Made by a program: the position numbers and the translations under genes
NCBI GenBank assembly: GCA_039030395.1
Contig: JBCCEF010000020.1
Coordinates: forward strand, 17,364 to 81,363
Direction of reading: 5' to 3'
Length of the DNA stretch: 64,000 nt
From: Acidobacteriota bacterium
Lineage (GTDB): Bacteria > Acidobacteriota > Thermoanaerobaculia > Multivoradales > JBCCEF01
The notes under the pieces: model-generated
Told to the model about the DNA's origin: nothing
The model's database searches: none
Seen by the model: only the letters and a program-made list of their open reading frames with translations
Part shown: piece after piece, positions 7,889 through 21,886 of the stretch
How positions within the stretch are numbered: the first letter of the stretch is position 1
Layout of the letters: every line of letters begins with the position of its first letter

Positions 7889-8934
7889 GGAGGGGTGAGG
7901 TGGATCCTTTGGAAAGGTTCCAGGTTCTCGGCCGCGGCGCGGACGATGAGATGCAGCGCGAAGGCCTGATCGAGCCGTTTGAGGCCGATGAGGTTTGCAA
8001 AGCCGTGCAGAACCTTGATCAAGGGTGGAAAAAACGGCTGGGCGGCGAAGGGATCGAGCTGAATACCCGAGTCGTCGTAGCGGCCGTCGACGTGGCGAGC
8101 GATCCGCAGGAGGGTCGCGCCCCAGGGGGTATCCGGTACCGGCTCCCGCGGTCCCTCCACGGCGATCGATTCGCGCAGAACCTCGACGGCGCCGGCGTTG
8201 CGCGACGCCAACCGTTCGAGGTTCTCGATGTACTCCTGGCCCTGGTCTTCCTCTTTTCCTTCGCGCAGCAGCGGTGAACGGATCAACCAGTCGCGGTGGT
8301 ACGCGGCGTAGGCGGCGGTTTCCTGGGGGGAGAGGCCGAGCGCGTAGGCCGCCTGGATCATCGCCCGCCACATCAAGCGCTGGCGTCGCGGATGATCGAT
8401 CACCGCCCGCTGATCCGCCAGCTCGGAGAGAAACATCGAGCATCCCCGATCGAAGGCGCGCACCATCAGTCCGCGGTAGGCGGGGTCTTCCAGGTACGGT
8501 TCACCGCCGAAGGAGATCTTGGTCAAGCGGTAGTCGGTGAAGTCGAGGGACCGGTCCGGCGCCGGCTCGTCGCCAAAGTCCCTACCGTCGATCGGCGGCG
8601 ACTCCGACCGGGAGGGCCGGCGAGCCTCGTCGTCGGCCGGCGGCAGTCGGCCGAAGAACCCTTCGGTCAACGACAGCATCCGGGAGCGAATAGCGTCGAC
8701 CTCCGATTCTGGAAGGTGGATGCGAATCTTGAGGTGCTCGCCATTGCGGGCATAGCGCATAGCCCACAGTAGCGCCTCGTCGGGTAGAGCCTCGAGTTCG
8801 CTGCGCAGGGGCACCAAAACCTCGAGCGCTGCGGAGTCCAAGACGCTCGCGGCATAGAGATTGGCGGAAAGGTTGGGGTCGGTGGACGCGCCGCCTTCGC
8901 GAGTGCCTCTCGGAGGTTGCGCCGCCTCTACCAC
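7885..8934 (-). CDS. SpaB_C / Lant_dehydr_C-like protein, copy 1 (divergent), translationally coupled to the dehydratase N-domain gene
   Basis: It carries LLWAMRYARNGEHLKIRIHLPE, a divergent version of the W.F.RY.D.g.HLRLR signature of the LanB elimination / thiopeptide-type bacteriocin biosynthesis domain. The start is GTG, preceded by AAGGAGGAGA. There is a 4-nt GTGA overlap with 5177-7888. Confidence 0.7.
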   Translation of the reverse strand: MVEAAQPPRGTREGGASTDPNLSANLYAASVLDSAALEVLVPLRSELEALPDEALLWAMRYARNGEHLKIRIHLPESEVDAIRSRMLSLTEGFFGRLPPADDEARRPSRSESPPIDGRDFGDEPAPDRSLDFTDYRLTKISFGGEPYLEDPAYRGLMVRAFDRGCSMFLSELADQRAVIDHPRRQRLMWRAMIQAAYALGLSPQETAAYAAYHRDWLIRSPLLREGKEEDQGQEYIENLERLASRNAGAVEVLRESIAVEGPREPVPDTPWGATLLRIARHVDGRYDDSGIQLDPFAAQPFFPPLIKVLHGFANLIGLKRLDQAFALHLIVRAAAENLEPFQRIHLTPP

Positions 8935-9155
8935 GGCACTTCTCCTCCTTGGCTTCCCGGCCTACAGGGAGCATTGAAGTCGCCAAAAGAATATTTCTTC
9001 ATCGACTTGCTAGGTTATCAGGAGATTTTTTGATATGGTTGTATGGATAAATACAGAGGTCAGTAGTAAAACAACGCGTGTTCGGCTTCGTAGCCGACCG
9101 GTGTTCGCGAGCCGCGATAGCTGCTCATTCTCGAAATCGACTAAGGAGGTTGTTT
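8935..9155. promoter_or_regulatory. AT-rich divergent intergenic region between the SpaB_C/dehydratase operon (-) and the precursor operon (+); likely divergent promoters/operators
   Basis: This is the most A/T-rich stretch in the left part of the window (..aaaagaatatttcttcatcgacttgctaggttatcaggagattttttgatatggttgtatggataaatacag..). It contains TTGCTA/TTGATA-type hexamers and an imperfect inverted repeat AAGTCG-N-CGACTT. The exact -35/-10 elements could not be fixed by eye. Confidence 0.45.
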
Positions 9156-9308
9156 ATGTCAGATGACGTTAAGAAGGGCCTGGACAAACTGGAGAACGTC
9201 GACATCACCGAGATTTCGGACGAGGATCTCGAAGGAGTGTCCGGTGGCGCCGAGATCGACGAAGGCGACTGCGACTCGTGGTGGTGCTGTTCGAACACCA
9301 ACGCATAA
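9156..9308 (+). CDS. RiPP precursor peptide (50 aa): MSDDVKKGLDKLENVDITEISDEDLEGVSGG / AEIDEGDCDSWWCCSNTNA
   Basis: A perfect AAGGAGG sits 6 nt upstream of ATG 9156. The leader is acidic and ends in the double-Gly-type motif LEGVSGG. The C-terminal 19 aa contain 3 Cys and 3 Ser/Thr. The gene lies directly between dehydratase-family genes. The upstream 26 codons of ORF 9078-9308 lack an RBS and look non-coding. Confidence 0.85.
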   Translation: MSDDVKKGLDKLENVDITEISDEDLEGVSGGAEIDEGDCDSWWCCSNTNA

Positions 9309-9329
9309 GCTGATTGGACAACCCGCAAG

Positions 9330-9372
9330 CGGCCCGCCCGCGTCCTCGACGCTGCGCGGGCCGTTTCCTTTT
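9330..9372 (+). terminator. GC-rich stem-loop plus T-rich tail immediately after the precursor gene (candidate attenuator / partial terminator)
   Basis: cggcccgc (9330-9337) pairs with gcgggccg (9356-9363). An inner stem gcgtc/gacgc is present, and the structure is followed by TTTCCTTTT (9364-9372). It sits between the precursor gene and the next biosynthetic gene. Confidence 0.5.
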
Positions 9373-9432
9373 GCGGCGAATCTCCAACGGGCATCCTCCG
9401 CAGGCGCCAGTCCAAGGAGCCTTCCCTTCCCT

Positions 9433-10491
9433 ATGACCATCCGCAATGGTCTCGCCGCCGGACACTGGACCGGCCATCACCTCCACTACCATGGGGAGCA
9501 GGACCTGCTTCTCGCTTCCCTCCTGATCCCGATCCTCCACCGGTGGTTTGCCGCCGGTTCCCTCGAACGCTTTTTCTTTGTCCGCTATGCCCTCGGCGGA
9601 CCCCACATTCGGCTGCGCTGCCGCTGGCGGGATACGAACGCCGAAGGCCGCTTTCAGGACGAACTCACCCGCGTCGCCACCCGCTTCTTCGAGCGGCACC
9701 CCTCCGCCTCGAGCTGGTCGCCGGACACCATCCGGCAGCGCAACCGAGGCATTCTTGCGCACGATCCCAGTGAAGTGGACGACGTGGTCTATCCGGACCA
9801 CTACGTGCGGCAGGTGATTTTCGAACCGGAGACCGACCGCTACGGTGGCGAGGCGCTCGTCGCCGCCTCGCTGGAGGTCTTTTGCCTCTCGAGTCTAGCC
9901 GTCTGTGACGCCTTGGCCAGTGCGGAGTTCTCCCCGAAGGAATCGAAATACGCCCTCCAAGTACTCGCCGCTCAAGCGGTGGCGAGCGTCGAGGATACGC
10001 TCGACTTCAGCCGCTTGATGGAGAGCCTCGGTGAGCGAGCACGGCGGCGCTTTCCGGCGGCCCTCGACCAGGCGGACGAACGGTTCGCCCAGACGGGCCG
10101 GGCCTTCTCTCGCGGTCTTTACGGTCAGCTCCGTGGCCCAGCTTCCGACGCCGTGGACCGTCTCCAGGCGGGACTCCGGCTGTTGCGCCGGCAGTTGGGC
10201 GAGGTCGGCGATTCGGCATCGACGGTCCTGATGAGCCAGCTCCACATGACGGCGAATCGCCTTGGCCTGTCGAACCTCCGCGAAGTCTATCTGTTGCGGC
10301 TTCTCGAGTGCGCCGCGGGCCAGTGGCTGGAGGAGGATCTTGCCCTGCCGCCGACCTCCGGCCAGCCATCGGCGGGCGCTCCCGATTCGCTGGCTGAACT
10401 CGTCAACGGAGGACTCGACCGCTTCGCCTCGTCCGGTGACTCCAGTACACTTCAGCCGGTGGATTCTCGAGCACAGCGGAGGGGACCATGA
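9433..10491 (+). CDS. SpaB_C / Lant_dehydr_C-like protein, copy 2 (most canonical; likely the glutamate-elimination partner)
   Basis: It carries ERFFFVRYALGGPHIRLRCRW (compare NisB FFLRYTDPKPHIRLRIK) and FEPETDRYGGEAL (compare NisB YDQEVERYGG). The start is taken at ATG 9433; the upstream part of ORF 9163-10491 overlaps the precursor gene and is Arg/Pro-rich. The stop overlaps the next start (ATGA). Confidence 0.8.
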   Translation: MTIRNGLAAGHWTGHHLHYHGEQDLLLASLLIPILHRWFAAGSLERFFFVRYALGGPHIRLRCRWRDTNAEGRFQDELTRVATRFFERHPSASSWSPDTIRQRNRGILAHDPSEVDDVVYPDHYVRQVIFEPETDRYGGEALVAASLEVFCLSSLAVCDALASAEFSPKESKYALQVLAAQAVASVEDTLDFSRLMESLGERARRRFPAALDQADERFAQTGRAFSRGLYGQLRGPASDAVDRLQAGLRLLRRQLGEVGDSASTVLMSQLHMTANRLGLSNLREVYLLRLLECAAGQWLEEDLALPPTSGQPSAGAPDSLAELVNGGLDRFASSGDSSTLQPVDSRAQRRGP

Positions 10492-11723
10492 CAGGGTCGG
10501 TAGAGACCATCTTTACGGCTGAACGGTTGTTTTCTCCTCTCGGGCTCAGCACTTTTGTCGCCCAGTATTGGCAGTCGCAACACCTGCTGCTGCAGCGTGA
10601 TCACTCCTCTCACTACGGCGACCTGTTTCGCCTTCGAGACATCGACCGCTACCTGACGCTGGCGGCGGAAACAGGGCTGGGCAACATCTCCCTCATCCGG
10701 GACGGCAAGGTCACCCGAAAGTTGCGGCCAAGGGGACTCGACGTCCGACAGCTCTACTCCGCTCTAGGCAACGGCTCGACCCTTCTCTTCGAGCAGATCG
10801 ATCACCTCTGGATGCCGGTGCGTGAGCTGGCGGCGGACCTCGCTCGGTCACTCAGTGCGCGAGTGAAGGTCAACGTGTACCTGACGCCCCCGGGCCGCCA
10901 GGGCGCACCGATTCACCCGGACATTCAAGATGTTTTCGTCCTGCAGCTCGAAGGGGCCAAGGAATGGCACTTGTATGGCGAGTCCATGTACGAGCCGGTG
11001 GAGACCACCGAATACCTGACGGAACTCGGCTACAGAAGGCCGGTCATGCCGAAGGAACCCGAGGCCATGCCGCCGGTGACCCTCGAGCCCGGCGATCTGC
11101 TCTATATGCCGAGGGGCCTCCTCCACCGCGCCGTAGCCCCGGCGGATCGCCCGTCGCTCCACCTGACCGTGTGCGCAACGCCGATCTACTGGGTGGATTT
11201 CCTCAAGGTGGCCATTGAGGCTGCTTCGCTGGAGCGTCCGGAACTCGCCGCGGCTCTGCCTCCGGGATTCGAATGGGCCGGCGTCGACGCCACTCTGCAG
11301 GAAGCCTTCGAGAGCGCCGTCGATCTGGTGCGGCGGGGGACTTCCTTCGCTACCGTGGCTCAGGCTTTTGCTCAGCGGACCGAGAAGCTTCCCGGAGATG
11401 GCCATTTCCATACCCTCCTGCACCTCGAAGAGATCACCGCAGAGACCGTCCTTGAAGCTCGGACCGGCTCCCCCTGCGAGATTGTCCACCGGGGCGACAA
11501 GGTCGAACTGCGGTGCGGTTCCATCAAGCTCCAGGGACCCGCCGGTGTGGCACAGGCCTTCGAACGGATACGCGATCGGCCGCGGCTACGGGTGGCGGAG
11601 TTCTCCGAAGACTTGAGTGCAGAGGCGAAGGTTTCCCTCGCCCGGCGCCTGGTGTCCGAGGGACTGCTGCGGGTCGCCGGCCGTGCCGTCGCAACCGCTG
11701 AGGGCGCCGTGAAGACAGGGTAG
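10488..11723 (+). CDS. JmjC / cupin-4 (ribosomal-oxygenase-like) Fe(II)/2-oxoglutarate-dependent oxygenase
   Basis: The segment GAPIHPDIQDVFVLQLEGAKEWHLY contains the HxD facial-triad residues and the DVF.lQ.eG.K.W signature. PGDLLYMPRGLLHRAVA contains the distal His. There is an ATGA overlap with the upstream gene. The last codons and the stop lie inside the transposon's left inverted repeat. Confidence 0.8.
   Translation: MTGSVETIFTAERLFSPLGLSTFVAQYWQSQHLLLQRDHSSHYGDLFRLRDIDRYLTLAAETGLGNISLIRDGKVTRKLRPRGLDVRQLYSALGNGSTLLFEQIDHLWMPVRELAADLARSLSARVKVNVYLTPPGRQGAPIHPDIQDVFVLQLEGAKEWHLYGESMYEPVETTEYLTELGYRRPVMPKEPEAMPPVTLEPGDLLYMPRGLLHRAVAPADRPSLHLTVCATPIYWVDFLKVAIEAASLERPELAAALPPGFEWAGVDATLQEAFESAVDLVRRGTSFATVAQAFAQRTEKLPGDGHFHTLLHLEEITAETVLEARTGSPCEIVHRGDKVELRCGSIKLQGPAGVAQAFERIRDRPRLRVAEFSEDLSAEAKVSLARRLVSEGLLRVAGRAVATAEGAVKTG
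11712..11716. repeat. 5-bp target-site duplication AAGAC (left copy)
   Basis: An identical AAGAC directly abuts the outer end of both terminal inverted repeats (11712-11716 and 18260-18264). Confidence 0.85.
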
Positions 11724-11760
11724 CGGGCAGAAAGCTGCAACCGTATACGGTAGGGCGCTC
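11717..11760. repeat. Tn3-family left terminal inverted repeat (IR-L)
   Basis: The sequence is AGGGTAGCGGGCAGAAAGCTGCAACCGTATACGGTAGGGCGCTC. The reverse complement of 18216-18259 is AGGGTACCGGGCAGAAAGCTATAACCGAATACGGTAGGCCGCTC. Confidence 0.85.
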
Positions 11761-11973
11761 CCCCGAGCGGTCCGGGAAGTTCTTGGAGTCTTTTCGACGC
11801 GCCCAGGGTCCCTTTCTTGCCGGCCCTGGCGGGCTCCTTCTTTGCCGGGCGAAGTTGCTGAATTGGCTCGAATCATGCGACACATCGCGTTGGAGTAGTC
11901 TGATGACATGGGTGGTTAGTGCTATATTTCGCGGGAATTCTCTTGCTTAGGAAATTCGTGCCGGGATTGTCAC

Positions 11974-13572
11974 ATGTCGGTACTCAAGGCCCCGGTAGAC
12001 TGTCGAATGCCGCAAACCTCCAACGCTTCACGAGCCACAGTCGAAACTGCTTCGCCGCGTGGCAGCGCCCTGCTGTCGGTATTGCTTGTCATAAGCCTCG
12101 CGGGGATGGCGCCAGCTCTAGCGCAGGAAGCCGGTTGCCCGACCAACGTACCGGCGACTGTGATTCAGAGCCTCGAGAACGCCGAGATCCGCGCCCAGGC
12201 AGGGCAGGCGCCGAACTGGGCTCAGATAGGCGGTGACTACCAAAGGGCTCTTCGGCTGGTCCAGGCTCAGATTCGAGAGCACGAGAGCAAGCTGCGCCAA
12301 TACGAAGCCGGGATCGCGCAAGGTAACGGTGCGCAGTGGAGGAAGGCCGCCTCCCTGACGCGAGACGGTCTCAAACTCAACCGAGCCGCAGCCCAAGTCC
12401 TCGCCTGTCACGCTCGGCGGTCGCATGGAGGCGCCACAGGCGCCCCCGGCTCGAGGTCATCGCAAGAGACTCTCTTCGGCGAGACCGTCCGTCCGGTTGG
12501 CAGGGAGCCGAGGTCCCGAGGCTGGGGCCCCCGCCGCTCCCAAACCGACGATCTACCGCGGGCGGACCTGGGTGAGGCTTTCGACACAGCCCTGGATGAG
12601 CTGCTAGAGGGCCTCCTGGACTGGGAAAACGACCCAGGAGAAGAGACCGAATCAGGGGCCAACTCCGGTCCCGAAACCGGCTGTAAGGCTCAGGTCACTG
12701 CGCGACTCAAGACTGACAACACGGGACAAGTCTTCCTTGACGTTCGCGCCAGCTCTGATGAACCGAGTGCCAACGTCTCCTTTCAGCTTTCCAACCCAGG
12801 CCTCACAGAGCGGCCCTTCGGAGATCCGGTGTTCTTGGAAACCACCGAAGGGTTCGCCGAGCTGTCCATCCCACTGGCGCACGCCAGGCGCGATGCTGCG
12901 ACCGAGTCCTCCCCATGCAGCAATCTCGAAGAAGCCAGCCGGCAGCTTCGAGAGAACTGGACTCGGCTCTCAACCAAGTACGACGTTCTGGACACCTACC
13001 TGTCAGAGGTCAGCCGCTATCGCGAGGAGTTCTCAGAGACAGAGACATGGGTAGCTGTGGGCTATATCGCTCTCGCGTTTAAGCAGGTTGCCGAGACCCT
13101 GGAGGTGTACCTAATGGGTTCGAGCCTCAGCACCTGCGTCGGCGGCTTGGCGAACGCCACGATCTCCGAGATTGTCTCCCCGGCCTCCTGCCTCGCCGGC
13201 GGGAACTGCCTGTACGACTTCCTAAACAAGCACGCAAGTCTATGGCTGGAGGCAGCCTCCTGCACTGGATCACAGATCGCCGCGACCATCTCCGGCATCA
13301 AGGGTCGACTGGACTTTGTGATCAGCACCGCTGAGAACTACTCGCACCTGCAGGATATCAACGAGTTCAGGGACATCGTCCGCGGGAACATGCTTCGTCT
13401 CGAAGGCGAGCTAAGGAAGGGTGACGCCAAGCTGAAGCAGCTCGCGAACAGTCGCCGCGAGGTTGAAGAGGCGATACAAGCTCTCCACTCTTCGTGCCGA
13501 TCCTCGGCCCTTGAGGGGATCGCAGTGAAAGTCCTTTCCTGTCAAGTCAAGCTTCCGGAACCGCTCGGATAG
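11974..13572 (+). CDS. transposon passenger 1: secreted hypothetical protein (532 aa)
   Basis: The N-terminus is signal-peptide-like (ALLSVLLVISLAGMAPALAQEAG). Coiled-coil-like segments are present. GC content is lower than in the host flanks. No recognisable domain was found. Confidence 0.6.
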   Translation: MSVLKAPVDCRMPQTSNASRATVETASPRGSALLSVLLVISLAGMAPALAQEAGCPTNVPATVIQSLENAEIRAQAGQAPNWAQIGGDYQRALRLVQAQIREHESKLRQYEAGIAQGNGAQWRKAASLTRDGLKLNRAAAQVLACHARRSHGGATGAPGSRSSQETLFGETVRPVGREPRSRGWGPRRSQTDDLPRADLGEAFDTALDELLEGLLDWENDPGEETESGANSGPETGCKAQVTARLKTDNTGQVFLDVRASSDEPSANVSFQLSNPGLTERPFGDPVFLETTEGFAELSIPLAHARRDAATESSPCSNLEEASRQLRENWTRLSTKYDVLDTYLSEVSRYREEFSETETWVAVGYIALAFKQVAETLEVYLMGSSLSTCVGGLANATISEIVSPASCLAGGNCLYDFLNKHASLWLEAASCTGSQIAATISGIKGRLDFVISTAENYSHLQDINEFRDIVRGNMLRLEGELRKGDAKLKQLANSRREVEEAIQALHSSCRSSALEGIAVKVLSCQVKLPEPLG

Positions 13573-13671
13573 GAGGCCATGCGGTTCATCGAGCTTGTCT
13601 TGATGCGTCCCCGGTCTCGCCGCCTACCCGTTCCCATACAGCCAGGTAGAAACAACACTGGAGGAGCGCGC

Positions 13672-15162
13672 ATGTATACCATTACGAGACAATCGAACCT
13701 TCGGCCAGTCCTGGATCTCGCTCTTGCGGCGCTTCTGCTCGCTTTCTCCGCGACGTCGGCGCTCGCGGAGGATCCAATTGAGGCTCGATACCAAGGTGGC
13801 GACTACAGTGGTGCGATCGAGTTTGCCGAGAATCGCCTCAAAGAGGCCCCGGAGGATCTGCGTGCCCGCAAGCTGATGCTCGCTGCGCTGCTCAAGCTTG
13901 GGGATGCTCATTTCGCTCGGACGCTACTGGATGACCTGCCCAACGACCGTGCGCATGAGCGCTTCAAGCAAAGTGCAGAGAGAATCCTTGAGCGGTTTGA
14001 GGCTAGGGAGCTGGACGAGGCCAAGATCATCGCCGCTCTTGCGCACTTCCAGACCGACTCGGCAATAGACGTGATCCGTGAATCCCATTTTACGCAGCTG
14101 GAAAAGAAACTCCTAGAGTCGCAGATTCTGGCCCTTTCTGGGCGCTTTTCCGAGGCGCTTGGGGCCATCTCAGGCGCTGAGGTTTCGAGCTACTCGCAGA
14201 AGAAGCTTCTAGACGACCTCACATCGCGGACTCGGGAGAAGGCCCAGCGTTTTGAAGAGTTGTGGGACAGCGAGATTCGCTTTTTTGTAGATTCGCCAGA
14301 GTCGTCTGCCCACTGGGGCTACTGCACCAAGTCAATACCTAACTACACCCTCGAAGACTTCGTCAGAGTTGTTGACGATGTGGCACAGCTCGCACCCCTA
14401 GACGGCCGAGTGCTAGACCTTATCTTCTTGTCTTCGCTCTTCGTCACGGACGACTACGAGCCTGTGCGGAGACTGGGCGAGGCCATCTTGTCGGCGAAGG
14501 GTAGCCTAGGCTTTTGGGCGCACTCCAGAGACTTCCACTACCGATTGGTCGTTGACAGTCGACAGCGGACAGTGAGCATCCAAGAGCAGCGGCCAATCGA
14601 AACGAGCTTTCGGCAAAATTTGATGGGCACTGGATGCAAGAAATCGAAGCAGTCCTACGGGAATCCATTAAAGCCGTATCGGGTCTCGTTCGATGCAATC
14701 CGAAGTGTGGAGCAGCACAATGGCGGAAACAACAGCTTTGATGACAGTTTCATAGGCTTCAACGGCCAACACGAATCCGGTAACCTCAAGGTTGCCACGC
14801 TCGTCTTCTGGGAGTGGGGCCGAGCCGCGGAAAGTGCGGTCTACCGGAAGCTGGGGCGGTTCTTCGTGGACCTTTTTGGGGTCTCTGCTGCCAAACTGGT
14901 TCCGGAGCGCCAGGACCTGGGCTCTGGTGCCCTAGCGCTAGTGTTCGGAGCTGCCTACGGCCTTCAGGCCCTGAACCAGGGGACCTCCTTCGACATAGCG
15001 GCGTTTCAGCAGGACTTGATGGACGGCGCAAAGCTGCTGGAGGAAGCGAACGCCCAGAACCGGGAGCGGCGGATCGCCTGGATGCAGCACCTCAAGTCTG
15101 AGGAGATTCTCAGCATCGACGAGTCGCGATTCGAGTCCTTAGAAGACCTTCTCGGGAGCTAA
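13672..15162 (+). CDS. transposon passenger 2: secreted hypothetical protein with a TPR-like N-terminal region
   Basis: GGAGGA lies 6 nt upstream of ATG 13672. A signal peptide is present (LALAALLLAFSATSALAEDP). Helical-repeat-like sequence follows (EAPEDLRARKLMLAALLKLGDAHFAR). Confidence 0.6.
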   Translation: MYTITRQSNLRPVLDLALAALLLAFSATSALAEDPIEARYQGGDYSGAIEFAENRLKEAPEDLRARKLMLAALLKLGDAHFARTLLDDLPNDRAHERFKQSAERILERFEARELDEAKIIAALAHFQTDSAIDVIRESHFTQLEKKLLESQILALSGRFSEALGAISGAEVSSYSQKKLLDDLTSRTREKAQRFEELWDSEIRFFVDSPESSAHWGYCTKSIPNYTLEDFVRVVDDVAQLAPLDGRVLDLIFLSSLFVTDDYEPVRRLGEAILSAKGSLGFWAHSRDFHYRLVVDSRQRTVSIQEQRPIETSFRQNLMGTGCKKSKQSYGNPLKPYRVSFDAIRSVEQHNGGNNSFDDSFIGFNGQHESGNLKVATLVFWEWGRAAESAVYRKLGRFFVDLFGVSAAKLVPERQDLGSGALALVFGAAYGLQALNQGTSFDIAAFQQDLMDGAKLLEEANAQNRERRIAWMQHLKSEEILSIDESRFESLEDLLGS

Positions 15163-15433
15163 TACGATTTCGCAGACCGTAGAGAGAGCGAAGTCGAGGC
15201 CGCTCTCCGAGGCTCTGCACCAGTCCAGAGAGTCCGTGACGGGGTATGATTGCGCGGTACGATCGCAAAAGCGAAATCGACACCCCGCAACCGAGATGCC
15301 CAGCGACTCGCCAAGATCCTTCGGGACGGAGGCTACTCCTATGACCAGGCGAAGCATCTGGTCGCCGAGGCGCGACGCCTGGTCGGCCTGAAGCCGCCGC
15401 GTCGACGCAAAGGCAGCGTTGATCGCTTGACCC

Positions 15434-18217
15434 GTGAGGAAGGTTGCCGCGCCAGAAGCCGTTCGAGGTCGACGAAGACCTTCTGGCTCACGTCGCGGAC
15501 CAGCTGAACGTGCACCCGATGCGGCCGACCTGATCGCGCGGTACGCACTGCGACATCCGACGATTTCGGAACATGCCGAGCGGACGAGTCGTTACCTCGG
15601 CCTTCGCCCATTCGAATCCCGAGACCGCCGAGAGCTGCGTCTGTTCATCCGCAAGGAGGTCGAGCACCTCGAGCAGGTCTCTGGACTTCTTGCGGCGGCA
15701 GAAGGACACCTGCGCCGGCAGGGGCTCCTCTTACCGGCGGAATCCACCCTGTGCCGCGTCGTCGGCGAGGAGGGACGGGCCTTCCGCAAGAGTCTTTTCG
15801 AGAAGGTGGAGTCCACGATACCCCAGGCGGTCAAGGACGCCATCGACGGGCTTCTCATCGCGGAGCGGGATGAATCCGAAACCTCCGCGCTTCAGTCGAT
15901 CAAGGAACCACCCGGCTCGGCATCTCCTCGAGCGATCCTGGCAGAGAGGGACAAGCTCGATGCGATCCTCGCAACAGGGGCCATGGACGTCGATCTCTCT
16001 TGGGTTCGCGGCGCACTGCGCAAGTCCCTGTCCCATCGCGTCCGCCAGTCAAGCGCTCATCGCCTCCGCGAGCTCGTGCCCGGGCATCGCTATGCCGCGA
16101 TGCTGTGCTTCCTGCAGGAGGTCCACGGAGACACGATCGATCAGGTCGTTGATCTCCACGCGAAGGTGATGACTCAGACCTACCGTGGTACGAAGAACCG
16201 GCTCGACAAGGAGTACTCCCGGAATCGGAGATCGCTAGTGGCGAAGCTGTCGACGTTGGCGGCGGTGGGAGAGATCCTACTCGATCCCGAGCTACCGGAT
16301 CGGGATCTCCGCGGGGCAGTGTTCTCTCGCGTACTGCGCGAGGTTTTCGAGTCCCAGGTCAAAGAGACGCGCAGATGGCTGAGCGAGAAGAGCGACCTCT
16401 TCCCGAAGGTGGCCGCGCGCTACGCCTACTTCCGGCGGTTCTCGCGCCAGGTGCTCGAGCGCCTTCACCTGGAGCCTGAGGCGACCACGGATGCCAGCGA
16501 AACCCGCCAGTTGGTCGCTTCCGTGGATCTGCTCCGCCGACTCAACGCTGAACGGAAACGCTCGGTGCCGGAAGGAGCGCCGCCAGGCTTCGTCCCGAAG
16601 AGCGTACGCCCATTCCTCGAGGTCGATGGCTCGATCGATCGGGCAGCCTACGAGTGTGCGGTCCTGACCGCGATTCGAGACGAGGTCCGCAGCGGGAACA
16701 TCGCCGTCCGAGGCAGCAAGCGCTTCGGTCGCCTCGAGGATCTCTTCATGCCTCCGAGCGCATGGGAGATCGAGCGGTCCAGCTTATTCGAGAAGGCCGG
16801 CTTGCCTGCGCTCGGTCAGGCCGCAGCCGGGCACGTGTCCGGCCTGGTCGGGCAGTCCTACGATCGATTCCTGGACACGCTCCCTCGCAACGCCTTCGTC
16901 GAGGTCAACGCGGAGGCGGGCTGGAAACTCGGATCCGATCCGGCGGAGCAGATGGATGCCATTGCGGAGGAGAGGCTCGCTCGTTTGAACGGTTTCCTCG
17001 AGGAACACATGCGGCGGATCCGGTTGCCAGACCTGCTCATCGCGGTCGACAATGAGGTCCGTTTCTCGCGGTTCCTCTCGCGAGATCCAAGGCAACGTTC
17101 GCAAGAGAGCGTCTGCCAGGCTGTTGCTGCAGTGATGGCCTACGGCTGCAACCTTGGTCCCGAGACGATGGCCCGGCTCACGCCAGGCGTGAGCTACGCG
17201 CGGATCAAGCGGGTGGCTGACTGGAATCTCCCTGAAGAGGCACTGCGCGCAGCCTTGGCGCAGATCGTAAACGCGATCGGAGGGCTCTCGACGTCGAACG
17301 TTTGGGGCGAAGCCAAGACGGCGTCGAGTGACGGTCAGCGGTTCCTCTTCCCTCGGCGGTCCGCGCGGCGCACCTACAGTCACCGGATGGGGGACTATGC
17401 CCTGGAGTTCTACTCCTTCATCGCCGACCACTACGCCCCCTTCTTCTCCTTTCCGATCGAGTGTTCCGAGAGAGACGCCGCCTACGTCCTCGACGGCCTG
17501 CGCTACTACGAAGCCGATCTCGAGATCGACGAGCACTACGTCGACACCCACGGCCTCACGGAAGCCAACTTTGCCGGATTCGCGATGCTGGGCCTGCGCT
17601 TTGCGTCCCGGATCCGGGGACTGCGACGGCAGAGTCTCTACCACGCAGACAGGCAGCGGGATTACGGGGCACTCGCCGAGATGCTGCGGCCGCGGGACCG
17701 ACTCCTCCGGTTAGACTGGATCGCCGAGCAGTGGGATCGTATGGGGCAGTTCTTCTGCTCGATGGCGACCGGCCACGCGACTGCCTCTGTCTCCATGAAG
17801 CGCATCGTCGGCTTCGGGCCCAGGAACCGTCTCTACCGAGCGATCCGAGAGCTCGGCCGAGCCCTCAAGACAGTCTTCCTCCTCGACTACCTGAGCCAGC
17901 CGGACCTGCGGCGTCGGGTTCGCCGCGGCCTTCTGAAGTCCGAAGAGCTACACGCCTTGGCAAGAAGCGTGTTCTACGGGAAGCTCGGCAAGGCGGATTG
18001 GCGCGACTTCCGGCGGCAGATGTCAACCGCCAGCTGCCTCCTCCTGATTCTTGCTGCGATCATCTACTGGCAGATCCGCGAAATCGAGCGCGTGACCGCG
18101 GAAGCCGCGGACGACGTGCCCACTGACCTCCTCGTGCATGTCAGCCCGATCAGCTGGGAGAACGTCGTCCTCTATGGCGAGTACCGGCTGCGTCCGGAAC
18201 TCGTTGCACTCGGGTGA
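15434..18217 (+). CDS. tnpA: Tn3-family DDE transposase TnpA; the 5' end appears frameshifted/decayed, so this is probably a pseudogene
   Basis: The C-terminal two-thirds is typical Tn3 TnpA (SSDGQRFLFP...YSHRMGDYALEFYSF...EHYVDTHGLTEANFAGFAMLGLRF). The conserved N-terminal segment is split across two frames: VDEDLLAHVADQLNVHP in one frame stops at TGA 15531-15533, and APDAADLIARYALRHPTISEHAERTSRYLGLRPF continues in the long ORF frame. Confidence 0.85.
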   Translation: MRKVAAPEAVRGRRRPSGSRRGPAERAPDAADLIARYALRHPTISEHAERTSRYLGLRPFESRDRRELRLFIRKEVEHLEQVSGLLAAAEGHLRRQGLLLPAESTLCRVVGEEGRAFRKSLFEKVESTIPQAVKDAIDGLLIAERDESETSALQSIKEPPGSASPRAILAERDKLDAILATGAMDVDLSWVRGALRKSLSHRVRQSSAHRLRELVPGHRYAAMLCFLQEVHGDTIDQVVDLHAKVMTQTYRGTKNRLDKEYSRNRRSLVAKLSTLAAVGEILLDPELPDRDLRGAVFSRVLREVFESQVKETRRWLSEKSDLFPKVAARYAYFRRFSRQVLERLHLEPEATTDASETRQLVASVDLLRRLNAERKRSVPEGAPPGFVPKSVRPFLEVDGSIDRAAYECAVLTAIRDEVRSGNIAVRGSKRFGRLEDLFMPPSAWEIERSSLFEKAGLPALGQAAAGHVSGLVGQSYDRFLDTLPRNAFVEVNAEAGWKLGSDPAEQMDAIAEERLARLNGFLEEHMRRIRLPDLLIAVDNEVRFSRFLSRDPRQRSQESVCQAVAAVMAYGCNLGPETMARLTPGVSYARIKRVADWNLPEEALRAALAQIVNAIGGLSTSNVWGEAKTASSDGQRFLFPRRSARRTYSHRMGDYALEFYSFIADHYAPFFSFPIECSERDAAYVLDGLRYYEADLEIDEHYVDTHGLTEANFAGFAMLGLRFASRIRGLRRQSLYHADRQRDYGALAEMLRPRDRLLRLDWIAEQWDRMGQFFCSMATGHATASVSMKRIVGFGPRNRLYRAIRELGRALKTVFLLDYLSQPDLRRRVRRGLLKSEELHALARSVFYGKLGKADWRDFRRQMSTASCLLLILAAIIYWQIREIERVTAEAADDVPTDLLVHVSPISWENVVLYGEYRLRPELVALG

Positions 18218-18259
18218 GCGGCCTACCGTATTCGGTTATAGCTTTCTGCCCGGTACCCT
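18216..18259. repeat. Tn3-family right terminal inverted repeat (IR-R)
   Basis: See IR-L. It begins immediately after the tnpA stop (TGA 18215-18217). Confidence 0.85.
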
Positions 18260-18264
18260 AAGAC
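18260..18264. repeat. 5-bp target-site duplication AAGAC (right copy)
   Basis: It is identical to 11712-11716 and directly abuts IR-R. Confidence 0.85.
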
Positions 18265-18295
18265 CGGCGGCTCGAGCTAACCCGAAGGAATCCGG

Positions 18296-19222
18296 TCAGC
18301 CGGCGGCAACGTCGAGGGCTCGCTTCCAGCCGTAGAGGATGAGCGGGCGCTGGCGATGGATCGGCAGGGCGAGCTGCTTGAGGGTGACGTGGACCACTTC
18401 TCGCAGCAGGGCGGCACCGGTGTAGGGCGAGGTTTCCGAAGGACGATGCTCGCCCGGCGGAATGATCGCCAGCAGGCGCTCCAGGGCCGCCGCCGTCGGG
18501 CCCTCGCTTGAGGACTCGCTCTCCCAGGCGCGAGATAGGAGGTCCAGGTTTGCCGGTCCGAGGACTTCGGCTAGGCGGGCCGCCATGTCGTCTTCGGTCT
18601 GCATCCGGCGGATAATCGACGCGGCATGGTGGCGCCAGTAGACCGAGGGATGGCTCCAGGCCCGTCCGAGTACGGCCTCCAGCCGCGACAGCCAGGCGAC
18701 CGCCGCCGCCATCGCAGATGTACCCTCTCCTAGGGTTCGCAGAACGTCGTCCGCGAGGCGGTCGAAGATCCGCCAGGCTTCGTCCGGCCTCGAGGTCGCC
18801 CGCAGCAGGCGGAGCGGGTAACCGTCCGCTGGCTGCGCACACCACCGAACGGAATCGCGTTCGGCGAAGCCCTCCTCGGCATCGGTCACACAAAGGGATT
18901 TGCCGAGGCATTGGCGGTGCCGAAGGGCCAGTTCGTCCTCGCCGATCTCGCCGCTGGCGGGATGCTCGGACAGGTGGTGACGGATCGCTTCGCCGAGAGC
19001 CCGCCTCACCTCCCCAAGACGCCCCGGAGAGACGGTCAGGAGGAGAAACAGATGGGGGCCTCGGGCATCGAACCGGTCGAACCAGAAGTGGCTGATGGAT
19101 CCGGTCCGGCGCAGGTCGCGGATTGCCGGTACAAGGCCGTTCACCAGCAGAGCCGTCTGCTCCGGCAGGTGCCAGCGATAGACATTCCCGGCGAGGTGGG
19201 GTCCCGCTTCTATGGAGCTCAA
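18296..19222 (-). CDS. SpaB_C / Lant_dehydr_C-like protein, copy 3 (divergent)
   Basis: It carries SISHFWFDRFDARGPHLFLLLTV, a divergent W.F.R[YF]....GPHL.L.L signature located ~45 aa from the N-terminus, as in the other two copies. Before the Tn3 insertion this gene was convergent with the JmjC gene. Confidence 0.6.
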   Translation of the reverse strand: MSSIEAGPHLAGNVYRWHLPEQTALLVNGLVPAIRDLRRTGSISHFWFDRFDARGPHLFLLLTVSPGRLGEVRRALGEAIRHHLSEHPASGEIGEDELALRHRQCLGKSLCVTDAEEGFAERDSVRWCAQPADGYPLRLLRATSRPDEAWRIFDRLADDVLRTLGEGTSAMAAAVAWLSRLEAVLGRAWSHPSVYWRHHAASIIRRMQTEDDMAARLAEVLGPANLDLLSRAWESESSSEGPTAAALERLLAIIPPGEHRPSETSPYTGAALLREVVHVTLKQLALPIHRQRPLILYGWKRALDVAAG

Positions 19223-19238
19223 CGCAGGGAACGTCGGC

Positions 19239-19988
19239 TCAGGGGTAAGGGATCAAGATGTCGTCCAGCTCATAGAGCTGACGAGCCTTGCCGCAGAGAT
19301 ATTCCGCCCGCAGCCCATGCTTGAGGATGTGTTCCAGTGACCGGCGCTCCGGAATCGTCAGGCTCGGCAGAGAAAGCACATAGGAATCCAGCGTGGAGTA
19401 GTAGATGGGCTTGCCGCGACGGTCGATGAGCAACGGATCTCGGCCGGCGGCGAGGGCGCAGATCGTCCGGTAGAAGCTCTTGACGACCTCCCAACGGCGC
19501 TGCGCCCGGGCGATCCGCGCCTCCAGGAAAAAGAACTCCACCCCATGATGGGCCAAGGGCAAAAGGAAGGGGAGAAATCCGACGACCTCGCGCAGGCAGT
19601 CCCGCGCCCTCGAAACATCGTTCCAGGCCGCTTGATGTTGCCCCCTGAGAAACGATTCGTAGGCCGCAGCGGTGAAGTACCAGCGGCCCACTACTCCCGC
19701 CCAGTCGGGTCGCTCCTGCTCGAAAGTAGCCATGCCTTCTCGCGCCCGGGAGAGCGCCTCACCGGCTTCCGCCAGGCGACGGCCGTGCAGCAACTGAACC
19801 GCCTCGTCGACCGCCGCGCGCGCTTTCGCCGCATCGCTCTCGAGGTAGGCCTGAATCCACGAGTCGCCCTCCCGGCCACCCTTCATGACGAGGAATTCCC
19901 ACGGCGGAAAATCTTCCATGGTGAGCTTCCCGGTGTCCGGGGAAGGAGCCCACCGGACCGGTGCGTCGGTACTTGCTGCCACGCCCAT
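19239..19988 (-). CDS. hypothetical protein (249 aa), upstream partner of SpaB_C-like copy 3
   Basis: The ORF is coding-like and lies 16 nt from the downstream gene on the same strand. No recognisable motif was found. Confidence 0.5.
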   Translation of the reverse strand: MGVAASTDAPVRWAPSPDTGKLTMEDFPPWEFLVMKGGREGDSWIQAYLESDAAKARAAVDEAVQLLHGRRLAEAGEALSRAREGMATFEQERPDWAGVVGRWYFTAAAYESFLRGQHQAAWNDVSRARDCLREVVGFLPFLLPLAHHGVEFFFLEARIARAQRRWEVVKSFYRTICALAAGRDPLLIDRRGKPIYYSTLDSYVLSLPSLTIPERRSLEHILKHGLRAEYLCGKARQLYELDDILIPYP

Positions 19989-20155
19989 TTGAGTCGAAGA
20001 TTAGCACGGGCCATCGGTCCGCCACGCACCGACCTTCGGGGAGAAGCGACGCCCAACCCTTGCATAGACGGATCTGCATGGAAGACAATGGAGTGGCTAT
20101 CCGGTGATGCGGTACCCGTTTGTAGGATGAATTTTTCGATTGAAGGAGGTCTGCC

Positions 20156-21886
20156 ATGTCGTACCGGTTCTTCTCTACCTCCGTAGAAAATCTGAGACGC
20201 GAGGGCGAAAGGCGCGCGCGCCTCGCGGCGGTGGCGGCGCCCCTCGCATCGCGCGAACGCACCGGCCGCCCGGTCAGTCCTTTGCGTCGCCGGCTGGGTC
20301 GCGACTTCTTCACCCCCGCCGGCCAGCCGGCGACGGTGCCGTCGCCGCCGTCGGCCGGGGTGATCGCCTACTCGCGCCTTGCTTTCGGCCCGCGGCCCGG
20401 CGAGATCGATGCCTTCAACGCCCTCGCCGGGACCGACCCCGCCCGCCTTCAGGCCTGGGTCGACCAACAGCTCGATCCGGCGAGCCTCGACGACAGCCAC
20501 ATCGACAACCGCATCGCGGCCTCGGGCTTCACCACCCTCGGCAAGACCGTCACCCAGCTTTGGACGGAGCACGCCATCGCCCAGGACATCCCTTGGGACG
20601 AGGTGATCCGGCCGCTGCGCGAAACGGAACTGGTGACCTTCCTGCGTGCCATCTACAGCCGCCGGCAGCTATTCGAGGTGATGGTCGATTTCTGGCACAA
20701 CCACTTCAATGTCTACGCTCATGAATGGCCCTTCGCCCCGATGTGGGTGCACAGCGACCGGGACGCCATCCGCGCCCACGCCTTCGGCAACTTCCGCCAG
20801 ATGATCGAGGCGGTGGCGCGCACTCCGGCGATGCTCCATTACTTGGACAATGCCGAGAACTCCTTCGAGGACGCCAACGAGAACTACGCCCGCGAGCTGC
20901 TGGAGCTGCACGGCCTGGGGGCGGAGCACTACTTCGGCAACATCCCCCAGGGAGCGGTGCCGCGAGACGCACAGAACCGCCCCCGCGGCTTCGTCGAGGA
21001 CGACGTCGTCGCCGCCGCCCGTTGTTTGACCGGCTGGACGGTGAGTGACCGGAGTTGGGACCCGGAGATCGGCAATAGCGGCGAGTTCCTGTACTACGAC
21101 CCCTGGCACGACCACGACCCGAAACACCTTCTCGGGATCGACTTGCCGGGGAATCAGGCGCCGATGAAGGACGGTCACGATCTGTTCGATCTGATCGCCG
21201 GTCATCCGGGCACCGCCCGCCATGTAGCCGGCAAGATCGCTCGGCGGCTGCTCGGGGATGTCCCGCCGGCGTCGGTGGTGGATGCGGCGGCGGCGGTGTT
21301 CGCGGCGCAGATCAGTGCACCGGATCAGCTCGCCCAGGTGATCCGCACCATCGTGCTGTCGCCGGAGTTCCTTCAGACCTGGGGCGACAAGGTCAAGCGC
21401 CCCTTCGAGATCGCCGTCGGCGCTTTCCGGGCGACCACCGGCGACATTCCCTTTCTGCGCGGTGACGACGCCACCAACTGGTTCTACTGGGAGTACTACC
21501 AAACCGGCCAGCCGCTCTTCGGCTGGCATCCGCCGAACGGCTATCCGGACTTCAAGAGCGCCTGGAACACCACCGCTCCGCGGGTGATGAGCTGGCGCCT
21601 CGCCAACATGCTGATCCAGGTCAACGACGGCGAGAATGAATATTTCGAGTTCCTGAGCCAGATGCCTCCGGACGTGCGCTCGGCGGAAGCCATCGTCACC
21701 TTCTGGACGGAGCGCATGCTCGGCCGGCCGACGCCCCCTTCGGAACACACCAAGCTGGTCGAGTTCATGGCCCAGGGCCACAACCCGTCCTTCGACCTCC
21801 CCCTCGACACGGACGAGGGTACTCAGATTCGCCTGCGCGCCCTGATCGCGCTGATCCTGCAATCGCCTTCCTTTCTCTGGCGCTGA
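20156..21886 (+). CDS. DUF1800 family protein
   Basis: It carries FWHNHFNVYA, NENYARELLELHGLG and AMLHYLDN, which are characteristic DUF1800 motifs. A GAAGGAGG RBS is present. Confidence 0.8.
   Translation: MSYRFFSTSVENLRREGERRARLAAVAAPLASRERTGRPVSPLRRRLGRDFFTPAGQPATVPSPPSAGVIAYSRLAFGPRPGEIDAFNALAGTDPARLQAWVDQQLDPASLDDSHIDNRIAASGFTTLGKTVTQLWTEHAIAQDIPWDEVIRPLRETELVTFLRAIYSRRQLFEVMVDFWHNHFNVYAHEWPFAPMWVHSDRDAIRAHAFGNFRQMIEAVARTPAMLHYLDNAENSFEDANENYARELLELHGLGAEHYFGNIPQGAVPRDAQNRPRGFVEDDVVAAARCLTGWTVSDRSWDPEIGNSGEFLYYDPWHDHDPKHLLGIDLPGNQAPMKDGHDLFDLIAGHPGTARHVAGKIARRLLGDVPPASVVDAAAAVFAAQISAPDQLAQVIRTIVLSPEFLQTWGDKVKRPFEIAVGAFRATTGDIPFLRGDDATNWFYWEYYQTGQPLFGWHPPNGYPDFKSAWNTTAPRVMSWRLANMLIQVNDGENEYFEFLSQMPPDVRSAEAIVTFWTERMLGRPTPPSEHTKLVEFMAQGHNPSFDLPLDTDEGTQIRLRALIALILQSPSFLWR

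Follow-up and report, generated by a model that had tools for sequence, protein, structure and literature searches.

The 64-kb stretch of Acidobacteriota DNA analysed here (the window), which has a chromosomal genomic context, carries a RiPP cluster interrupted by an element with the ends of a Tn3-family transposon. An earlier note on this DNA regarded the element as intact-ended and its insertion as clean and probably recent, implying an autonomous transposon. The question is whether the element can still move and, if not, what it has lost. The evidence suggests that it is very probably a defective Tn3 transposon of the TnpI type, inserted in a JmjC gene, internally deleted and now non-autonomous.

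Insertion site and ends of the element

The element spans positions 11717-18259 (6,543 bp) and has the layout left inverted repeat (IRL), two cargo genes, candidate resolution site, tnpI, tnpA and right inverted repeat (IRR). The 38-bp IRL (AGGGTAGCGGGCAGAAAGCTGCAACCGTATACGGTAGG, 11717-11754, plus strand) and the 38-bp IRR (18222-18259, minus strand) are identical at 33 of 38 positions, and their similarity runs on inwards to 11767 and 18209, respectively, giving arms of 51 nt that are 88% complementary (45/51). The stop codon of tnpA (18215-18217) falls just within this inward extension of IRR. Over the first 44 nt (11717-11760 and 18216-18259) there are five mismatches. Direct reading and alignment thus bear out the 39/44 repeats with AAGAC on both sides that the earlier note had described. 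The two AAGAC copies were read at 11712-11716 and 18260-18264, and since they are preceded by different bases (G at one, T at the other), the target-site duplication is exactly 5 bp. A 37-nt pattern of the inverted repeat with up to three mismatches had a single match in the 64 kb and none in 100 shuffled sequences, and exact occurrences of its 12-mer core in the window are confined to the two ends of the element. The possibility that the repeats are a common genomic repeat, which the earlier note had named as a danger to its reading, was rejected on these grounds. A scan of the element for promoters and terminators gave counts not above those of shuffled sequences.

The insertion point lies within the last four codons of a gene encoding a 411-aa JmjC-domain oxygenase (10488-11723, plus strand; Pfam JmjC_2 at 2.5e-22). 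The open reading frame now ends ...AVKTG-TAG, with the last codons ACA GGG TAG, including the stop, coming from the transposon end. Its displaced original 3' end, C GGC GGC TCG AGC TAA, is read directly at 18265-18280 (plus strand). Excision of 11717-18264 joins ...GTGAAGAC onto CGGCGGCTCGAGCTAA and gives AAG ACC GGC GGC TCG AGC TAA (...KTGGSS*), with the TAA at 18278-18280, that is, 15 nt from the stop of the convergent gene (18296-18298, TCA on the plus strand). The restored ...AVKTGGSS-TAA terminus and this distance agree with the earlier reconstruction, as does the claim that only the last residues of the oxygenase were altered: three residues (GSS) are lost from a C-terminal tail that is variable among JmjC homologues, and the oxygenase is essentially intact, with three non-conserved residues missing.

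The convergent gene encodes a 308-aa SpaB_C/Lant_dehydr_C-like protein (18296-19222, minus strand; Pfam Lant_dehydr_C at 6.5e-8). A distant related cluster (L002) contains homologues of the 308-aa and 226-aa genes of the right flank at 44% and 39% identity, and its 316-aa counterpart of the former is convergent to the JmjC operon. The two flanks thus adjoin each other in this relative, as would be expected from the earlier placing of the element between two convergent gene sets, and the RiPP cluster has therefore been split by the element.

The exact 27-mer of the empty site was absent from JGI metagenome contigs, and a 30-nt degenerate pattern of the inverted repeat had no matches in either GTDB genome contigs or JGI metagenome contigs. 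No near-identical DNA was found on plasmids. No JmjC homologue exceeded 54% identity, and the 90% cluster of the window protein has a single member. The exact cargo and TnpA proteins were found only on one contig of the Logan collection, which covers this same locus. Neither an empty site, a second copy nor a close relative of the host locus was found in these searches, so that the reconstruction of insertion and excision is based on one sequence.

Relatives and family affiliation

The assignment to the Tn3 family, made earlier from the ~38-bp inverted repeats and the 5-bp duplication, is supported by protein profiles, ends and relatives. The TnpA proteins of the closest relatives (L004, L005/L006, L007, L018 and L019) are 56-68% identical to that of the window, and all six of the close relatives with a visible upstream region (L004-L007, L018 and L019) have a complete tnpI, encoding 228-244 aa, directly before tnpA. 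In these elements both tnpI and tnpA are complete, unlike in the window copy. Some Tn3-family members, such as IS1071, have no resolvase, and the loss of a resolvase therefore does not decide membership in the family.

The relatives and the window element share motifs upstream of tnpI, inverted repeats of the form AGGGT...TACGGTAG and 5-bp duplications (atatc and taggc in relatives). L004, L005 and L019 have both the AGGGT tip and the inner TACGGTAG box; the right end ...ACCCT was found in 11 further loci, and a 3.9-kb relative present in two copies has differing 5-bp duplications beside its AGGGT-tipped repeats. Since the terminal A is paired with a terminal T at the opposite end, it belongs to the inverted repeat. 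Box A of the repeat is 5'-GGGGT in Tn4430 and most Tn3-family members (PMC9579193); the tip AGGGT matches it at four of five positions and is constant in all clade ends seen. Judged by these ends, AGGGT is best regarded as a clade-specific variant.

Among 72,556 plasmids the best TnpA match was from Tunicatimonas (41.5% identity), and classical elements gave ~29-31%. The Tunicatimonas relative has no adjacent tyrosine recombinase, and no TnpI match was found upstream of tnpA in the more distant genome relatives (46-59%), so within the clade only the closer members have the TnpI module. Clade members were found in Gemmatimonadales, Planctomycetota, Verrucomicrobiales and Rhodothermales, all uncultured.

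The tnpI remnant and the truncated tnpA

In the place of the complete tnpI of the relatives, upstream of and colinear with tnpA, the window element has only a remnant with the first 60-66 codons of the tyrosine recombinase gene, ending ...DRLTREE (15262-15441, plus strand). It was found by tblastn with the TnpI proteins of four relatives, to which it is 69-81% identical (E 1e-19 to 1e-22). The same queries revealed no further portion of tnpI elsewhere in the window, and all of the catalytic residues of TnpI lie in the deleted part. The junction of the deletion (15438-15441, plus strand) is marked by a GGAA common to both sides and joins tnpI codon ~66 out of frame to tnpA codon ~48. In comparison with the relatives, ~650-700 bp are missing; the same landmarks are 648-703 nt apart in L004-L007.

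The remaining tnpA is truncated at its 5' end (15438-18217, plus strand) and is divided between two frames: codons ~48-71 are read at 15438-15509, and a second frame, at 15518-18217, carries everything from codon ~75. Aligned at the nucleotide level with L018 and L019, it has one gap of 1 nt, a net 1-nt deletion within 15505-15517 (plus strand) compared with full-length relatives. This deletion adjoins a short C run. The longest open reading frame of tnpA starts with GTG at 15434 and encodes 927 aa, the first ~28 of which are out of frame. A peptide encoded in frame 1 upstream of tnpA was considered as the true N-terminus of TnpA and rejected, since it matches TnpI. No second tnpA or tnpI was found in the 64-kb window.

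The implied reading of the earlier note, a Tn3-family transposon that is intact and autonomous and was active recently, has some evidence in its favour: the 5-bp duplication is perfect, the inverted repeats are good, and the 927-aa product matches the NCBIfam Tn3 transposase profile (NF033527, transpos_Tn3) with 648 bits, above the cut-off of 500 bits. The match to Pfam DDE_Tnp_Tn3 (PF01526) covers the full 389-position profile (7e-106) and is accompanied by a partial DUF4158 match. Every family-invariant residue of the family alignment is kept, including the conserved catalytic-core motifs; SSDGQRF, HYVDTHG and LLKSEELHALAR are retained. Against this, the NF033527 match covers only positions 69-953 of 954, with positions 1-68 absent, and Tn4430 TnpA (PDB 7QD4/7QD8) is matched (E 1e-101) only at chain residues 93-965. 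In the relatives TnpA has 973-1000 aa, and tblastn found nothing in the window that corresponds to residues 1 to ~47 of these proteins; the frameshift parts codons 48-71 from the rest, and of the resolvase gene only 60-66 codons are left. An intact transposon is therefore most improbable. The description of the element as intact-ended and clean holds for its ends and junctions, whereas the deletion of ~0.65-0.7 kb and the frameshift in its interior had been missed, so that "clean" fits the junctions only.

The lost part of TnpA can be placed by means of a full-length relative (P0124), whose alignment with Tn4430 TnpA starts at residue 36 and sets QLAFVR opposite QLVLIR. DBD1 is the key determinant of inverted-repeat specificity (PMC9579193), and the QLxxLR motif is essential for the transposition of Tn1721 (PMC11417375). 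The lost segment includes the N-terminal part of DBD1, with the QLxxLR-type clamp-binding motif. By analogy with TnpA of Tn4430 and Tn1721, which are distant (~30% identity), transposition activity has probably been lost, and an N-terminally truncated product from GTG 15434 may conceivably still be made.

The deletion, the frameshift or the junctions themselves might also be artefacts, namely a chimeric join at a repeat or errors of assembly and sequencing. Ends of transposons of this clade do break assemblies, the contigs of L004, L007 and L019 stopping at the tip of the inverted repeat, and the position of the 1-nt deletion beside a C run would suit such an error. The Logan contig, assembled from SRR22824298 (34.6 kb), is 100% identical to window positions 5434-20701, covering both junctions, and agrees with the window contig base for base over 15.3 kb, internal deletion included. 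The source contig has 99,081 nt and the Logan contig 34,623 nt, so these are two different assemblies; the junctions thus do not differ between assemblies, a discrepancy that the earlier note had foreseen as fatal to its claim. The two may have been built from the same reads, in which case a population mix of deleted and undeleted copies is possible. A chimera would not create identical 5-bp sequences on both sides, nor restore an open reading frame in frame across the flanks, the inverted repeat is single-copy in the window, and a loss of ~0.7 kb with a 4-nt microhomology is an atypical assembler error. An artefact is thus very unlikely.

Candidate resolution site and cargo genes

Blocks conserved upstream of tnpI in four elements define a candidate resolution site (IRS/res) at 15166-15278 on the plus strand. 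It consists of an inverted pair, ATTTCGC (15167-15173) and GCGAAGT (15188-15194), a conserved TGCGCGGTA box at ~15251-15259 and a third motif, GCGAAAT, at 15271-15277; the motifs have identical 83-bp spacing in L004. Like the 116-bp IRS of Tn4430 (PMC2847244), the region combines an inverted core pair with additional recombinase-type motifs, here over ~113 bp. This conservation and analogy suggest that 15166-15278 may act as the resolution site.

Between IRL and the candidate resolution site, as in L004, lie the cargo genes. ORF1 (11974-13572, plus strand) encodes an orphan protein of 532 aa that is rich in Cys in its C-terminal half and has a predicted signal peptide. It had no match in Pfam, NCBIfam or PHROG, and a search among 5.8 billion proteins found no homologue but itself. 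Its GC content by codon position (0.64/0.50/0.71) is coding-like and below that of host genes. ORF2 (13579-15162, plus strand) belongs to an unnamed TPR family. Its product of 527 aa, which shortens to 496 aa if translation starts at the ATG at 13672, the start called on the Logan contig, has a signal peptide, TPR in its N-terminal region and, towards the C-terminus, a domain of ~350 aa without assigned function. Apart from weak TPR similarity (Pfam TPR_19), searches of Pfam, NCBIfam and PHROGs gave nothing for it. It has 66 distant homologue clusters (23-30% identity, E down to 1e-28), and TPR are present in 11 of 27 family members. An alignment-based AF2 model reached a pLDDT of 76.7, the single-sequence model (pLDDT 42) being useless; Foldseek comparison of the model with the PDB gave only generic TPR matches (E >= 0.005), and a profile search of PDB sequences gave the same. 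The cargo of the relatives is unrelated: L004 carries TetR, DUF2147 and DUF418 genes, and L005/L006 carry none. Both cargo genes of the window are candidates for new secreted functions.

Comparison with known transposons

The order of resolution site, tnpI and tnpA, colinear and with tnpA ending at the right inverted repeat, is the same as in Tn4430 of Bacillus thuringiensis (PMC7157771), and both elements have ~38-bp inverted repeats and 5-bp duplications. The TnpA of the clade, as represented by a full-length relative, is homologous to Tn4430 TnpA along its whole length, distantly and at the profile level only. The two differ in the tip of the repeat (GGGGT in Tn4430) and in their hosts, Bacillus and high-GC uncultured phyla, respectively. 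Tn4430 has no cargo; the window copy has two cargo genes, no functional tnpI and a tnpA without its 5' end. In Tn5401 and TnBth4, compared here by organisation alone, tnpI likewise precedes tnpA in the same orientation and the resolution site is upstream of tnpI (PMC7157771), but in these Bacillus elements the resolution site is adjoined by a ParE/ParD toxin-antitoxin pair, where the window element has two secreted-protein genes as cargo. A survey of 190 elements in 2020 knew TnpI from three Bacillus elements only, Tn4430, Tn5401 and TnBth4 (PMC7157771).

Non-autonomous derivatives of the Tn3 family are also comparable with the window copy. TIMEs are Tn3-derived inverted-repeat miniature elements of a few hundred bp without genes; like tnpA-defective copies, they keep the family inverted repeats and 5-bp duplications and need a helper transposase for movement. 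The window element, with its 6.5 kb, cargo, candidate resolution site and most of tnpA, is more like a freshly disabled full transposon.

Origin of the defective copy

The following course of events is proposed for a defective TnpI-type transposon. An element of an uncharacterised Tn3 clade, the close members of which would resolve cointegrates by the tyrosine recombinase TnpI, as Tn4430 does, was probably transposed by TnpA into the JmjC gene at its last codons, duplicating the target AAGAC. A single deletion of ~650-700 bp would then have fused tnpI codon ~66 to tnpA codon ~48, and the 1-nt deletion would have shifted the frame of tnpA further; we infer that this decay came after the insertion. 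No damage is apparent in the ends, the candidate resolution site or the two genes for secreted cargo proteins, and renewed movement would be possible only with a compatible TnpA in trans, plus TnpI for resolution. The insertion is plausibly recent, as the perfect duplication, the 2.7 kb of tnpA free of stops and the retention of family-invariant residues would suggest.

Alternatively, the element might have been defective already on arrival: a full-length TnpA from a related copy elsewhere in the cell would have acted on the intact inverted repeats of a tnpI/tnpA-deleted derivative and moved it to this site, and the cointegrate would have been resolved either by host recombination or by TnpI supplied in trans. 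Such an arrival would account for intact inverted repeats, duplication and candidate resolution site in an element whose enzymes are defective. Related elements are multicopy per replicon (L005/L006) and assemblies break at their ends, which makes helper copies plausible. However, the window holds no second tnpA, and no other copy of the inverted repeat or the cargo was found in the collections searched; the body of tnpA shows no further decay, which fits a very recent lesion in situ equally well. Tn3-family transposases are also usually held to act preferentially in cis, which counts against such an arrival. This alternative is unlikely, although it deserves more weight than an intact element or an artefact, and loss of function after insertion remains the preferred explanation.

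Implications for the host and for the Tn3 family

For the host genome, the value of these results lies mainly in annotation. The RiPP cluster is best read as one unit minus 6.5 kb of foreign DNA, the 927-aa "transposase" should be labelled as a truncated pseudogene, and, where no helper is present, the element is best regarded as immobile.

For the family, the relatives extend the TnpI-type organisation, which has been studied almost exclusively in elements of Bacillus thuringiensis, to a divergent TnpA clade of uncultured high-GC bacteria. It is possible, as a tentative and somewhat doubtful extension, that these elements form an undescribed TnpI-using Tn3 subgroup with distinctive AGGGT ends and a resolution site of four motifs, spread through uncultured phyla of soil and water (Gemmatimonadales, Planctomycetota, Verrucomicrobiales, Rhodothermales and Bipolaricaulia). 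In the same reading, an undescribed transposon-borne extracellular function would reside in the two secreted cargo proteins. By its distinct end sequence and conserved candidate resolution site, this clade adds usefully, though only incrementally, to the diversity of the Tn3 family.

Termini and insertion site

A repeat search found a sole long inverted pair in the window, with arms of 51 nt (11717-11767 and 18209-18259) that are 88% complementary; the runner-up pairs (20-40 nt, 70-80% matches) are at the chance level typical for GC-rich DNA. Alignment of the arms side by side gives five mismatches in the first 44 nt, which reproduces the 39/44 identity reported in the earlier note. The target-site duplication AAGAC described there was read before the left arm (11712-11716) and after the right arm (18260-18264), and is exactly 5 bp long, since the bases flanking the two pentamers differ. 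Two other readings, a common genomic repeat and an assembly chimera, were considered. A 37-nt inverted repeat (IR) pattern with up to three mismatches matched only its own site in the window and nothing in 100 shuffles, and the exact 12-nt IR core occurs at the two element ends and nowhere else in the window; thus, the IR is not a dispersed genomic repeat. As for a chimera, a Logan contig of 34.6 kb (SRR22824298) is 100% identical to window positions 5434-20701, and, the window's own contig being 99 kb, both junctions and the interior read the same in two assemblies.

The JmjC oxygenase ORF (10488-11723, plus strand) ends ...AVKTG-TAG, its last two codons and stop lying within the element. Excision of 11717-18264 gives AAG ACC GGC GGC TCG AGC TAA (...KTGGSS*), and direct reading confirmed that the restored TAA (18278-18280) is 15 nt away from the stop of the convergent gene (18296-18298), as had been proposed. 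In JmjC homologues, 5-15 variable residues follow a conserved (R/S)EGLLR motif before the protein ends; the loss of GSS is probably harmless, judging from these sequences. With only 15 nt between the stop codons of the convergent operons (18278-18298), the uninterrupted site had no space for terminators, and transcription from each operon would have run into the other; with the transposon in place they are 6.5 kb apart.

The split of one RiPP island by the transposon, also claimed in the earlier note, is supported by the gene order of related clusters. The right-flank genes (a SpaB_C-like protein of 308 aa and a protein of 226 aa) show 44% and 39% identity to two genes of L002 (GCA_966190215.1), a locus with relatives of the host cluster, where they face the homologous operon (SpaB_C gene followed by JmjC) in convergent orientation, with one extra gene and no transposon between the two gene sets. 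The left-flank genes are also common to L002 and to a second such locus, L003. The surroundings in the window are chromosomal and include tRNAs, glycogen genes, a DUF1800/DUF1501 pair, and genes for a kinase and an aminoacyl-tRNA synthetase.

The SpaB_C and JmjC genes are immediately preceded by a precursor-like gene (9156-9308, plus strand) for a 50-aa peptide, MSDDVKKGLDKLENVDITEISDEDLEGVSGGAEIDEGDCDSWWCCSNTNA, which has a GG motif, an acidic leader and a core rich in Cys and Trp, and shares 59% identity with a 56-aa gene in the equivalent position of L003. In L003, two JmjC paralogues (6268-7518, minus strand, and 8990-10240, plus strand; 53% and 32% identity to the JmjC of the window) flank the precursor and SpaB_C genes, and the cluster runs on into sugar-modification genes.

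A search for the empty site and for further copies gave no match: the best JmjC homologue has 54% identity, the cluster of the window protein has one member, and the exact empty-site 27-mer is absent from JGI metagenome contigs. The IR pattern is absent from GTDB genome contigs and JGI metagenome contigs, the exact cargo and TnpA proteins were found only in one Logan contig, and no near-identical DNA was found on plasmids.

Transposase relatives

By its transposase, its inverted repeats and its 5-bp duplication, the element belongs to the Tn3 family. The tnpA ORF (15434-18217) encodes a Tn3-family transposase matching Pfam DDE_Tnp_Tn3 (7e-106) and NCBIfam transpos_Tn3 (648 bits, cut-off 500), and the TnpA of Tn4430 is the only related solved structure (E 1e-101). 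Twenty homologues, all metagenomic, show 45-68% identity, the full-length members being 973-1000 aa long. At four of their loci (L004, L005, L006 and L007) tnpA is preceded on its own strand, at a distance of 7-13 nt, by a Phage_integrase gene (228-244 aa), tnpI; in the two closest relatives (L018 and L019) the 3' part of tnpI is visible directly before tnpA.

L005 (7084-11009) and L006 (6571-10496) are two copies, in opposite orientation, of a minimal 3.9-kb element consisting of IRL, a short conserved region, tnpI, tnpA and IRR; both are on the 53.9-kb contig ERZ25070591, which also has T4SS and MobA genes, and the 5-bp duplications around them are not the same (atatc versus taggc). At 7.5 kb, the L004 element is longer: four unrelated cargo genes separate its IRL from the conserved region. 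The window element follows the same plan of IRL, cargo, conserved region, tnpI, tnpA and IRR. A second, different Tn3-family tnpA (933 aa; L004 477-3278, minus strand) abuts the left end of the L004 element (IRL at 3468), suggesting nested or adjacent Tn3-family insertions.

The IRs of the window element and its relatives start with AGGGT and all contain an inner TACGGTAG box, and the right end ...ACCCT was found again in eleven more distant loci of named MAGs. For the Tn3 family, a GGGGT 'box A' is reported to be highly conserved (PMC9579193), and this tip departs from it. AGGGT is present at every end of the clade that was seen (window 11717-11721 and 18255-18259; right ends of L005-L015, L017 and L019). 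The metagenome contigs of L004, L007 and L019 end at the IR tip or 1-2 nt from it; these elements are evidently repeated in their own samples, and the assemblies break there. L016 (9001-10090) retains only the 3' third of a tnpA, the closest to that of the window (76% aa identity), and an IR without the tip (...GGTAC|TAAAG), and is another fossil of the same lineage; it comes from a MAG of run SRR22808116, a number close to that of the window's sample.

Damaged interior

The description of a clean, intact-ended transposon holds for the ends, but not for the interior, which carries a deletion and a frameshift. The main correction to the earlier note is thus that intactness is limited to the ends; its observation is confirmed and its interpretation partly supported. 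The NCBIfam match of TnpA spans only profile positions 69-953, and that of Tn4430 TnpA only chain residues 93-965. When the N-termini of the relatives were placed on the window by tblastn, residues 48-71 (GRLPRQKP...VAQQL) mapped to 15438-15509 in one frame and residues from 75 onward to a different frame from 15518, while residues 1-47 had no counterpart in the window. A peptide upstream in a third frame (15262-15441, ...RNRDAQRLAKILRDGGYSYDQAKHLVAEARRLVGLKPPRRRKGSVDRLTREE) is ruled out as the TnpA N-terminus, because it matches the start of the relatives' TnpI (first 60-66 residues, 69-81% identity, E 1e-19 to 1e-22); the rest of TnpI was not found in the 64-kb window. Since the tnpI and tnpA landmarks of the relatives are 648-703 nt apart, a single deletion of about this length joined tnpI codon ~66 to tnpA codon ~48, with GGAA at the junction (15438-15441) common to both sides. 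Nucleotide alignment with L018 and L019 places a further 1-nt gap in tnpA at about 15505-15517. An upstream GTG thus accounts for the 927-aa ORF, an artefact that opens with ~28 out-of-frame residues.

As every catalytic residue of the recombinase comes after position 66, no resolvase can be made. The transposase is also affected. A full-length relative, P0124, can be aligned to Tn4430 TnpA from residue 36, with RLGFAYQLAFVRLTG opposite RLGFALQLVLIRYPG of Tn4430; this segment belongs to DBD1, a key determinant of IR specificity in a cryo-EM study, which contacts IR positions 21-36 (PMC9579193). QLVLIR of Tn4430 (residues 55-60) represents the QLxxLR clamp-binding motif, mutation of which abolished or strongly reduced transposition of Tn1721 (PMC11417375). 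The DBD1 segment with this motif is absent from the window TnpA. Given the loss of this segment and of the catalytic part of tnpI, the element is probably unable, by itself, either to transpose or to resolve.

Little else has decayed: all residues invariant among eleven aligned full-length relatives are kept in the 899 codons of tnpA that are left, and no stop codon interrupts them, so the inactivating events are young compared with the divergence of the clade. The element is a single copy with a duplication, not a donor replicon between two copies, so the cointegrate was resolved; this weighs slightly in favour of TnpI having been functional when the element inserted, and hence of decay in situ. 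A helper may instead have mobilised a copy that was already defective.

Candidate resolution site and cargo genes

About 110 bp upstream of tnpI are conserved in the window, L004, L005 and L007, while the surrounding DNA is unalignable. In the window, ATTTCGC (15167-15173) and GCGAAGT (15188-15194) form an inverted pair with a 14-bp spacing; this region also holds a conserved TGCGCGGTA box and, 83 bp on from GCGAAGT, a third copy of the motif, GCGAAAT (15271-15277). All three motifs recur in L004, where the 83-bp spacing is identical, and the 7-mer occurs only 15 times in the whole window on both strands. In the 116-bp IRS of Tn4430, an IR1-IR2 core is accompanied by DR1 and DR2 (PMC2847244; PMC7157771). 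The candidate site (~113 bp) is built in a similar way, with an inverted core and, towards tnpI, further recombinase-type motifs, and by this analogy may act as a resolution site.

Two genes on the same strand fill the space between IRL and this site. ORF1 (11974-13572, plus strand) encodes a 532-aa protein whose N-terminus resembles a signal peptide and whose C-terminal half is rich in Cys; it had no match in Pfam, NCBIfam or PHROGs and no detectable homologue among 5.8 billion proteins. ORF2 (13579 or 13672 to 15162, plus strand) carries a signal peptide, and an exhaustive search found full-length relatives in 66 clusters at 23-30% identity. They form an unnamed family whose members are ~500-600 aa long and combine a signal peptide and N-terminal TPR repeats with a ~350-aa C-terminal domain. 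The structure model from the family alignment is reasonably confident (pLDDT 76.7), and predicts a beta-sheet at the core of the C-terminal domain; when PDB was searched by structure and by sequence, only generic TPR proteins were returned, with no fold match for the C-terminal part. Codon-position GC of both ORFs is of the coding type, with GC3 of 0.68-0.71 versus 0.76-0.78 in the flanking host genes, consistent with a foreign origin.

Place among known elements

The element has the organisation of Tn4430 and Tn5401. A 2020 survey of 190 family members listed TnpI only in Tn4430, Tn5401 and TnBth4, all from Bacillus (PMC7157771), and a search of available literature from 2020 onward gave no further TnpI-type Tn3-family elements. 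Against 72,556 sequenced plasmids, the best identity of the window TnpA is 41.5%, with classical elements at about 29-31%, and the MAGs of its relatives belong to Gemmatimonadales, Planctomycetota, Verrucomicrobiales, Rhodothermales and Bipolaricaulia. Elements of this type, and the mechanism they use, are well known, and the copy in the window is a disabled one. In view of the Bacillus-only record, the low plasmid identity and the origin in MAGs of uncultured phyla, the TnpA clade, with its AGGGT tip and candidate resolution site, is probably undescribed.
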